Source of the DNA: Malacoraja senta
Lineage: Eukaryota
DNA length: 60,000 bases
Assembly (NCBI GenBank): GCA_038087875.1
Contig: CM075987.1
Span: forward strand, 21,578,001-21,638,000
Direction of reading: 5' to 3'
The position numbers and the translations under genes are program-made. Under the pieces are notes generated by a model. That model did no database searches and had not been told where the DNA came from. It saw only the letters and a program-made list of their open reading frames with translations. Numbering within the stretch: the stretch's first letter is position 1; every line of letters begins with the position of its first letter. Below are positions 7,701-10,700 of this stretch, piece after piece.

Positions 7701-10700
7701 CAGTATTCCAAATGTGGTCTCACTAATACTGTGTACAGCTGCAGCAAGACCTCCGTGTTTTTATACTCAATCCCCCTAGCAATAAAGGCCAAAACTCCAT
7801 TGGCCTTCCTGATTGCTTGCTGCACCTGCATACTAACTTTTAGTGATTCATGTACTACTACCCCTAGATCCCTTTGCGTTGCATTACAATGCAGCTCCAC
7901 CTCATTTAGAAAATAACTTGCCCTATCATTTTTTTTCCCAAAGTGAATGACTTCACATTTATTAGTATTAAATTTCATCTGCCAAGTTGTTGCCCACTCA
8001 CCTAGCTTATCTATATCCTTTTGCAGACTCTTCCTATCCTCCTCATCCCCTACTTTTCCTCCCATTTTTGTATCGTCCGCAAATTTTGATATATTACACT
8101 TGGTTCCCTCCTCCAAATCATTTATATAAATTGTGAACAACTGGGGTCCCAGCACCGACCCTTGCAGAACCCTGCTAGTTACCGGTTGCCATCCCGAGTA
8201 TGAACCATTTATCCCCACTCTCTGCTTCCTATTTGTTAGCCAATCCTCTACCCATGCTAATATATTACCCCCAATCCCATAATTTTTTATTTTTAGCAAT
8301 AGTCTCTTATGTGGCACCTTGTCAAAAGCCTTTTGGAAGTCCAAGTATACCACATCCACCGGTTCCCCTTTATCCACCCGGGTTGTTACTTCCTCAAAGA
8401 ATTCGAGCAGATTCGTCAAACAGGACTTCCCCTTCACAAAACCATGCTGGTTCTGTCCGATGAAGTCATGTTTATCCAAGTGCCCCGTTAGTGTTTCTTT
8501 AATAATTGTCTCTAACATTTTACCCACCACCGATGTTAGACTAACCGGTCTATAGTTACCCGCCTTCTGTTTACTTCCTTTTTTAAATATAGGTGTTACA
8601 TTGGCCATTTTCCAATCCACTGGGACCGTTCCTGCCTCCAGGGAGTTTTGGAAAATTATCACCAATGCATCCACAATCCCCACTGCTATCTCCCTCAAGA
8701 CCCTTGGATGTAATCCATCAGGCCCAGGGGATTTATCCTCCTTCAGTCTCATTAATTTCCCTAATACCACCTCCTTGGTGATCTTAATAGTATTTAGCTC
8801 CTCCATTCCTACCGCCCCCTGTTTATCCAGCGTTGGAATATTTTTTGTGTCTTCTATGGTGAAGACTGATACAAAATACTCGTTTAATGCCTTTGCCATT
8901 TCCATGTTCCCCACCAACAACTCTCCAGTCTCACCCTCCAATGGTCCAACGTTCACCTTAGCCACCCTTTTTCTTTTTATATAGCTATAAAAACTCTTAC
9001 TATTAGTTTTTATGTTGTTCGCTAAATTCCTTTCATAGTCTATTTTCCCCGTCTTAATTAATCTCTTAGTTATTTTTTGCTGACCTTTAAATGCTTCCCA
9101 ATCCTCTACCCTCCCACTATCTCTGGCTACCTTATATGCCCTTGCCTTCAGCCGAATACTATCCTTTATAGTTTTACTGAGCCATGGCTGACTATTCTTT
9201 CCCTTACCCCTTTTTTCTTCATAGGAATAAATTTTTCTTGAAGGTTATACAGTAGATCCTTAAACGTACACCACTGCTCATGTACCGTCTTATTCTTGAG
9301 TCTGCTATCCCAGTCAACTTTGATCAGCTCAGTCCTCATACCTTCATAATCCCCCTTATTTAGACTAAGTACCCTAGCCTGAGTTTCAACCTGCTCCCCT
9401 TCTATTTGAATATGGAATTCGACCATATTGTGGTCACTTGTTCCCAATGAGTCCCTAACTATGACATTTTTAATTAATCCTGCTTCATTACACAGGACCA
9501 GATCCAAGATTGCCTCCCCCCTTGTCGGTTCTGTGACATACTGTTCTAGGAACCCGTCTCTAATACATTCTATAAACTCTTCCTCTAGTCTACCCTGCCC
9601 AGTTTGGTTTGCCCAATTAATATGAAAATTGAAGTCCCCCATGATTACAGCAGTTCCCTTTTTACATGCGTCAACTATTTGCAGATTTATGTTCTGACTA
9701 ACAGCGTCACAGCTATTTGGAGGTCTATAAATTACACCCACTAGTGTTTTTTTCCCCTTGTTATTCTCTATCTGTACCCAAGCTGTTTCACTATCCTGAT
9801 CTTTCAACGCAATATCCTTCCTCTCTATTGCCGTTATTCCCTCCCTTATTAAAAGGGCCACCCCTCCTCCCTTTCTTTCCTGTCTATCTTTTCTAATTGT
9901 CGAGTACCCCTCTATATTTAACTCCCAATCCTGATCCCCTTGCAGCCATGTCTCCGTAATGGCCACGATATCATAACTATATATACTTAATTGCACCGTT
10001 AATTCATTTATCTTATTTCGAATACTCCGTGCATTTAGATACAGCACTTTCAGATGATTTTTACTACCCTTCCTTTCTGTTTTTGCCCCTTTTACATCTA
10101 GAGCTTTATCTTCACACATTCTGGATCCTCCTGTCACATTTTGATTTTCCGTTTCCCCACTGATACCCTGCTCTATTTCCTCTACCCCTGCCGTTATTAC
10201 CCCCCTTGATACCTCCCCCCCGCTACTTAGTTTAAAGACCTCTCTACTGCCCTAGTTATATGATTTGCCAGGACCCCAGTCCCAGCACCGTTCAGGTGAA
10301 GTCCGTCCTTACAGAACAGATCCCCCCTGTCCCAGTACTGGTGCCAGTGGCCCAAGAAACCAAACCCATTTTTCCCACACCAGTCTTTGAGCCACGCATT
10401 CAGCTTTTTAATTTTACGTACCCTCGCCGATTTGGCCCGTGGCTCAGGTAGCAATCCGGAGATCAGTACCCTCGAGGTTCTGCTTTTTAATTTATTCCCT
10501 AACTGCTCAAACTCCTTCAGCAGATCCTCCTTCCTCGTCCTTCCTATGTCATTGGTCCCCACATGGACCACGACCACTGGATCCTCCCCCTCACTCTGCA
10601 AATTTCTCTCCAGCATCGCAGAGATATCCTTAACCCTAGCACCAGGTAGGCAACACAGCCTTCGGGACATGTTCTGCTGGCCGCAGAGAACCTTATCTAC

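Follow-up and report, generated by a model that had tools for sequence, protein, structure and literature searches.

We focus on a window of 60,000 nucleotides (nt) of DNA from Malacoraja senta (the whole stretch that was analysed, taken from a source genome of 1.94 Gb), and within it on a single mobile element and the point where its two open reading frames (ORFs) meet. The element is a young CR1-type long interspersed nuclear element (LINE), which we assign to family A, and it lies on the minus strand as a full-length copy of ~4.5 kb (6917..11437) with a 5′ end that recurs in some other genomic copies. ORF1 (10227..11180, minus strand) runs from an ATG at 11180 to a stop at 10229-10227 and encodes 317 amino acids with an SGNH/GDSL esterase domain (PF13472, E=5e-14), and ORF2 (7244..10236, minus strand) encodes an APE endonuclease and a reverse transcriptase (RT), as matched by PF03372 (Exo_endo_phos), PF14529, and PF00078 (RVT_1). 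How the ORF2 of a LINE is translated from a bicistronic RNA is a long-standing question, for which the usual answer in vertebrates is reinitiation. For this element, the comparisons assembled below lead us to regard the ORF1/ORF2 junction as quite probably a conserved programmed −1 ribosomal frameshift site, from which an ORF1-ORF2 fusion would be made.

Read on the minus strand, ORF1 ends in ...GAG AGG TCT TTA AAC TAA. Its last three sense codons (TCT TTA AAC) contain the slippery heptamer U_UUA_AAC (10230..10236) in the X_XXY_YYZ register, abutted on its 3′ side by the ORF1 stop TAA (10227..10229), in whose place other lineages carry TAG or TGA. The −1 frame is closed by a TAG at 10254-10252 and opens at 10251, five codons ahead of TTT AAA CTA, giving an ORF1/ORF2 overlap (10227..10251) with no Met in the −1 frame. 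Behind the heptamer come 8 nt (TAAGTAGC), then a run of seven guanines (G7, 10221-10215) and two further runs (G6, 10205-10200, and G4, 10188-10185). The G7 run (10215..10221), 8 nt 3′ of the heptamer and part of a conserved G tract, is a candidate stimulator of slippage, and the other two (10185..10205) complete a three-tier G-quadruplex motif in family A only. From the slip site to the LNARS motif of the endonuclease (codon 67), the ORF2 frame passes through a purine-rich linker (10039..10226, 78% purine), in which the first ORF2-frame ATG, a possible alternative start, stands at codon 40 from the heptamer (10117..10119), a position that is not conserved.

The preliminary description of this locus, made from the sequence of the window alone, had pointed to T_TTA_AAC at 10230-10236 in exact register before the stop, to a −1 frame opening five codons upstream and entering the APE endonuclease, to G7, G6, and G4 runs beginning eight nt after the heptamer, and to an in-frame ATG near 10119. 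All of this holds in the sequence and its frames, with the endonuclease frame identified by the Exo_endo_phos and RVT_1 domains, the G runs at 10221-10185, and the ATG at 10119-10117. An exact TTTAAAC abutting a stop in register is expected by chance at ~4^-7 per ORF end. Judged by sequence comparison, the TTTAAAC-stop arrangement is more than chance because it recurs in seven junction types with otherwise diverged flanks.

Conservation of the junction

Within family A, a first set of 30 genomic copies is 98.4-99.4% identical over 1.8-2.8 kb, and a 301-nt stretch around the junction shows 100% identity in 40/40 scored matches, drawn from 689 candidates. A further 30 copies (one of them the window's own) were sampled through ORF1 protein similarity, so that the sample is unbiased towards the junction, and TTTAAAC-TAA is intact in all 30 of these. 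No stop interrupts the −1 frame between the heptamer and the far end of the locus (502-545 codons) in 22 of the 30 copies L001-L030, and the same holds for 18 of the 28 copies among L031-L060 in which the anchor string was found. Family A is thus very young and abundant, and its high identity means that the master copy carries the junction while being silent on selection. A 1,770-nt contig from a run of another organism code spans the junction with no difference listed there; it adds no depth of conservation because it is ~99.5% identical.

More distant families were obtained by searching the genome with the ORF1 proteins of other species and fetching ~0.8-0.9 kb around the ORF1 ends. In families B and B2, ORF1 ends in ACT TTA AAC TAG, followed after the stop by AACGGTT GGGGGG AGGG. 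Family C ends in GTT TTA AAC TGA (or TAA) with ATAA GGGGGG T GGGG behind it, and family D in GAT TTA AAC TAA with TGTGGCA GGGGG. The heptamer is intact in 8/8 loci of the first B/B2 set (ACT...TAG), in 15/17 of the B/B2 and C loci, and in 6/8 of the D loci, with point-mutated copies accounting for the two misses in each of the latter counts. The set of ten loci that holds the D loci has 8/10 intact, namely six D loci, one C locus, and one B2 locus. Families B/B2, C, and D all have their endonuclease in the −1 frame, with no stop in that frame across the heptamer.

Metagenome contigs were scanned with an alignment of 18 ORF1s, returning 80 loci with distant relatives. Two lineages, E and F, come from unrelated metagenome records; their ORF1s are only ~20-45% identical, and they show the same NNT TTA AAC plus stop with ORF2 in the −1 frame. 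Lineage E (L086) ends in CAT TTA AAC TAG, then AAAGGAA GGGGGG. In lineage F, the end is GCT TTA AAC TAG (L087, L090, L092, L094), with a 5-G run after 7 nt in L087, L092, and L094 (the sequence of L090 stops 5 nt past the ORF1 stop), or ACT TTA AAC TAG with a 4-G run after 7 nt (L129). Three further loci (L088, L089, L093) are decayed copies of the lineage F type. The −1 frame of L089 and L092 opens 1-2 codons ahead of the heptamer and continues for 438 to >460 codons through the endonuclease. A scan of viral contigs yielded no ORF1 relatives.

Most of the remaining metagenome loci come from a different and abundant group of esterase ORF1s that end otherwise (many among L097-L165, e.g., L098, L100, L114, L128, L144). 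Here, the last codon and stop of ORF1 are ...AAC TGA, a conserved CTACACA(C/T)GG(C/T)GGGGAGCGAG stands behind them, and an X_XXY_YYZ heptamer is lacking.

With the six lineages aligned at the heptamer, no variation is seen in the eight columns TTTAAACT, while the 60 nt ahead of them have diverged. In the last 47 codons, the lineages share 19-70% of their amino acids and 23-55% of their third positions (B versus B2 left out as close relatives), and the synonymous sites flanking the heptamer are close to saturation. The terminal Leu codon is TTA in 12/12 rows, covering seven junction types, as against 2/28 for the other Leu codons within the last 26 codons of ORF1; the conserved Leu residues of DGLHL use CTT, CTG, TTG, CTA, and TTA. 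The codon preceding TTA always ends in T, regardless of which residue it specifies (S, T, V, D, H, or A), and all three stop codons occur, each directly after AAC. On this comparative evidence, we conclude that conservation of the junction acts at the RNA level, because TTTAAAC and the T columns are invariant and the terminal Leu is always TTA where third positions are near saturation. The heptamer and the −1 register, on whose conservation in relatives the preliminary description had staked its reading, are thereby both kept in families A, B/B2, C, and D and lineages E and F.

At the protein level, ORF1 homologues were found in sharks, rays, coelacanth, frogs, and turtles, and a C-terminal LN is present in 34/43 of the homologues. 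Among 18 aligned sequences with 34-65% identity to the query, L318 and N319 do not vary. An exhaustive search through cluster representatives listed 150, and by a motif criterion the C-terminus is complete in 91 of these (59 were set aside as fragments). An LN ending is present in 34 of the 91 listed representatives, with 24 of the top-scoring 26 among them, and in 33/34 the residue preceding LN is compatible with an NNU codon. The LN-ending ORF1s are labelled by their sources as coming from a ray, sharks, sawfish, eel, mormyrid, coelacanth, frogs, lizards, a snake, and turtles.

A second esterase ORF1 group ends in ...GN (8/91 representatives: P0111, P0113, P0115, P0128, P0139, P0142, P0146, P0151), and a few representatives end in ...SN or ...EN; in all, 45/91 are Asn-terminated. 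A Gln-Gly-Asn end could be encoded as CAG GGA AAC, which would form the heptamer G_GGA_AAC, another of the top slippery heptamers according to the accessible part of PMC5009743. A genome search with a GN-ending protein gave only CR1-type families B and D, and no locus with a GN ending was found among the metagenome loci scanned.

Frameshifting and its alternatives

If the junction works as its sequence suggests, most ribosomes would decode ...UCU UUA AAC and terminate at UAA, setting free the esterase-type ORF1 protein. A smaller number would slip back one base, with tRNA-Leu on UUA (P site) and tRNA-Asn on AAC (A site) re-pairing to UUU and AAA, and would then read CUA AGU AGC GGG..., the purine-rich linker, and finally the endonuclease and RT. 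The product would be an ORF1-linker-endonuclease-RT fusion of ~1,300 amino acids, made at a low fixed ratio like Gag-Pol. Since the element has no protease, the fusion would stay whole and might assemble into ORF1 multimers on the RNA that encodes it. What raises the slip rate may be the adjacent stop and/or the G tract instead of a stem or pseudoknot. We infer the slippage, its efficiency, the role of the fusion as the functional ORF2 product, and stimulation by stop and/or G tract from comparative conservation, which is also what supports the frameshift-fusion reading of the preliminary description.

The candidate stimulator is the G tract: a run of 4-7 G starts 7-10 nt after the heptamer in 9/9 sequences compared, within a region that is 62-83% purine over the 60 nt after the heptamer. 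Folding predicts no stem-loop of the kind expected 5-9 nt downstream at a canonical site (pseudoknots were not searched), and the conserved G run at 7-10 nt is the sole candidate; this run falls within a Gly-rich stretch of the linker as well. Two-tier G-quadruplex motifs occur in 6/10 sequences, with maximal G4Hunter scores (25-nt window, +1..+70) of 1.16 to 2.40. In the accessible part of PMC5009743, G-quadruplexes are described as stimulating frameshifting in synthetic constructs, with no natural use known. The preliminary description had noted quadruplex potential in the G7, G6, and G4 runs; such a three-tier motif is seen in family A but is not supported as a conserved feature, the single run of 4-7 G being what recurs. 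We therefore regard the G-quadruplex as probably not a generally conserved stimulator. Among ~99% identical family A copies, the G7 run is unstable in length, appearing as G6, G8 plus an extra T, G11, and G12 (L033, L037, L044, L060), and the ORF2 frame is therefore broken in those copies.

Several observations weigh against programmed frameshifting at this junction. As to structure, the 120 nt after the family A heptamer fold at −7.5 kcal/mol, which is less stable than their shuffles (z = +1.60), with 195/200 shuffles folding at least as well. Single-sequence folds of seven sequences (A, and two each of B, B2, and C), with and without a G-quadruplex energy term, yielded no hairpin common to the families (pseudoknots and long-range pairings were not searched), and the three-tier G-quadruplex motif (loops <=12 nt) is found in 1/10 sequences, that of family A. 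As to start codons, most lineages have some Met in the linker. Family D, as the sole lineage to do so, has a TAATG at the ORF1 stop (L166, L167, L169, L171, L173), whose ATG is in frame with ORF2 as codon 4, and some lineage F copies (L089, L129) have an ATG 2-5 nt after the stop, so reinitiation could contribute in family D and in some F copies alongside the slip site, although the other lineages do not keep such a stop-start arrangement. Furthermore, the LN ending might also serve the protein itself, the lineages share ancestry (so that conservation counts are not independent events), and all support is comparative, with the transframe product predicted from sequence.

The alternative that survives best, and that we nonetheless consider unlikely, is that ORF2 is reached by termination-reinitiation or by some other unconventional, possibly AUG-independent, internal initiation, the heptamer being kept for another reason. 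Such mechanisms are described for human L1 and for SART1 (UAAUG) in the accessible parts of reviews, and the in-frame ATG that family A has 108 nt beyond the stop, the TAATG of family D, the early ATGs of some F copies, and the lack of a strong predicted RNA structure after the heptamer all speak for it. A UAAUG-type start adjoining the ORF1 stop is absent in family A, where the ATG at 108 nt is the nearest in frame, and upstream of the heptamer none of the 40 loci scored has a Met in the −1 frame. The preliminary description had offered the ATG near 10119 as a caveat allowing reinitiation. The codon is indeed there, but its weight is reduced by the relatives: in family B, the ORF2 frame is free of Met for 235-252 codons behind the heptamer, a stretch that reaches beyond the endonuclease's catalytic Asn and Glu motifs, and in lineage E the first Met follows the beginning of the LNARS motif by nine codons. 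Neither can use an AUG to make a whole ORF2. Elsewhere, the first ORF2-frame Met shifts from lineage to lineage (codon 40 in A, 64 in B2, 26 or 57 in C, 4 in D, and 5, 23, or 90 in F). Because of these three features, the sequences indicate that AUG-dependent restart cannot be the general mechanism. Restart at a non-AUG codon is disfavoured because it leaves the kept heptamer, its register, and the frame relation unexplained. More generally, reinitiation of either kind does not account for an invariant in-register TTTAAAC beside the stop where synonymous sites are saturated, nor for a linker of 34-111 codons between heptamer and endonuclease that is always open and always in the −1 frame.

Considerably less probable still is that the heptamer is a coincidental by-product, hitch-hiking on an esterase that needs a C-terminal Leu-Asn, with ORF2 translated from its first AUG or from a separate RNA. 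The invariance of LN at the protein level would suit this explanation, and a 4-10 fold fall in RNA depth 5′ of ~9940 could hint at shorter RNAs. 5′-truncated copies explain that fall equally well, however, and it lies inside the endonuclease region, so an RNA starting there could not encode the whole of ORF2. A need for Leu-Asn also fails to explain why all seven junction types use TTA for the terminal Leu when other Leu positions seldom do, why the preceding codon always ends in T though its amino acid varies, or why AAC is followed in every case by the T of a stop. Moreover, the esterase fold as such has no need of LN or of the heptamer motif, because esterase ORF1s of other groups have other endings. 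Finally, a frame change in the RNA itself, whether the polymerase slips or the transcript is edited at the G run or the A run, can practically be set aside: the G run does vary in length among genomic copies (G6 to G12), but it lies downstream of the ORF1 stop and a change there cannot join the frames, the A3 of TTTAAAC is too short for known slippage, and two RNA runs list no indel at 10215-10236 (at very low depth).

The element, its copies, and their RNA

The CR1-type label rests on sequence features, namely the APE endonuclease with RT, the esterase ORF1, the 3′ repeats, and the relatives of ORF1. An esterase ORF1 is the sole ORF1 type recovered in vertebrate CR1 and L2, as given in the accessible part of a 2026 survey (PMC13343379). 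At its 3′ end, the element has two TTTCTATG-like units and no poly(A); its terminal letters are ...CTTTCTATGTTTCTAT without an A tail, in the manner of the short tandem repeats at CR1 3′ ends, of which two units only are seen here. The full-length 5′ end (reference position 464, equal to window position 11437) is shared by 7/30 genomic copies, and an eighth starts at 462. Other copies share further 5′ start points, with nine at 687/688 (window ~11214) and three at 718 (window ~11183) as compared with the seven at 464. These may be preferred truncation points or a sub-lineage with a different 5′ end.

The window copy itself is dead because a private one-base indel near 9210 splits its ORF2 into two pieces (10251-9166 and 9244-7244). 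The unbroken form at ~9210 is present in 79/93 RNA reads and in contigs from two other runs. Other parts of the window (43556-44757, 25966-26242, 24589-24739, and 36786-36941) hold older fragments with ~68-70% identity to the element's RT part. In runs X15-X20, which carry five other organism codes, 74-88% of the sampled words of the junction stretch are present; family A is therefore not confined to one species label, and near-identical copies occur beyond it.

No RNA record was listed as containing the stretch, and two raw-read RNA runs were placed on the element. Reads fall on both strands; the mean depth summed for the junction bin is ~2-9 per run, and because this depth is too low, the RNA reads are uninformative on the junction either way. 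In the 5′ third of the element (9940-11450), both strands show an RNA-seq depth 4-10 fold below that of ORF2. This drop fits read-through of many 5′-truncated copies or oligo-dT bias and says little on autonomous transcription.

Known systems and significance

U_UUA_AAC is among the shiftiest heptamers for mammalian ribosomes, as stated in the accessible part of PMC5009743. A close likeness is the coronavirus ORF1a/1b site (of the infectious bronchitis virus type), which has the same heptamer in the same register and yields a polymerase-containing product as a C-terminal extension. Coronaviruses use a pseudoknot a few nt downstream of the shift site, whereas the CR1 junction has no predicted stem, its 0-frame stop abuts the heptamer, and the G run alone is conserved downstream.

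Luteo- and dianthoviruses have shift sites with a nearby 0-frame stop and also use RNA structures, some of them long-range. Plant viruses of this kind, such as pea enation mosaic virus (PEMV), resemble the CR1 junction in having a stop that adjoins the heptamer on its 3′ side or lies nearby and differ in the heptamers they use (G_GAU_UUU and similar). In PEMV, the nearby 0-frame stop matters, and changing it to a sense codon strongly lowers frameshifting (accessible part of PMC5009743). With the Gag-Pol of retroviruses and of retrotransposons that carry long terminal repeats (LTRs), the CR1 arrangement shares an abundant first protein, a rare RT fusion, and overlapping ORFs with pol in the −1 frame (as far as PMC5009743 is accessible). 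It differs in that CR1 is a non-LTR element without a protease, whose ORF1 is of the esterase type rather than a capsid.

Among LINEs, the APE-type elements TRE5-A and TRE3-A of Dictyostelium are said to need a −1 frameshift (accessible part of PMC5911963). They are amoebozoan and belong to another clade, and the likeness is one of described mechanism. Human L1 and silkworm SART1 also make low levels of ORF2 after ORF1 from a bicistronic RNA, according to the reviews as accessible; they differ in using unconventional restart (L1) or UAAUG coupling (SART1), with a separate ORF2 protein and no slippery heptamer needed. In the searchable literature, we found no description of a slippery site at the CR1 ORF1/ORF2 junction, mention in early CR1 papers being possible. 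Frameshift sites of the −1 type are already known in retroelements; what would be new here, going by the sequences compared, is such a site in an unusual downstream context without a predicted structure.

Putting these points together, we tentatively advance a broader proposal, of which we are distinctly less confident than of the junction itself. The U_UUA_AAC-stop slip may be ancestral and general in the esterase-ORF1 CR1 LINEs of jawed vertebrates, giving an uncleaved fusion; its stimulator may be the adjacent stop together with the G tract 7-10 nt downstream, acting either as a new linear element or as a first natural G-quadruplex; and the GN-ending sister group may use G_GGA_AAC instead.

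In most vertebrate lineages, the dominant retrotransposons are those of the CR1 group, as reported in the accessible part of PMC13343379. If they do shift frame at this junction, they would fix the ratio of ORF1 to ORF2 as retroviruses fix that of Gag to Pol, and vertebrate genomes would hold very many copies of a functional frameshift cassette. As a cassette without classical structure, the junction would also offer a compact natural system for stimulation by an adjacent stop or a G tract. The active enzyme would then be an esterase-endonuclease-RT fusion tied to ORF1 multimers, giving a simple basis for cis-preference, and the question of how ORF2 is translated in the main group of vertebrate LINEs becomes directly testable.

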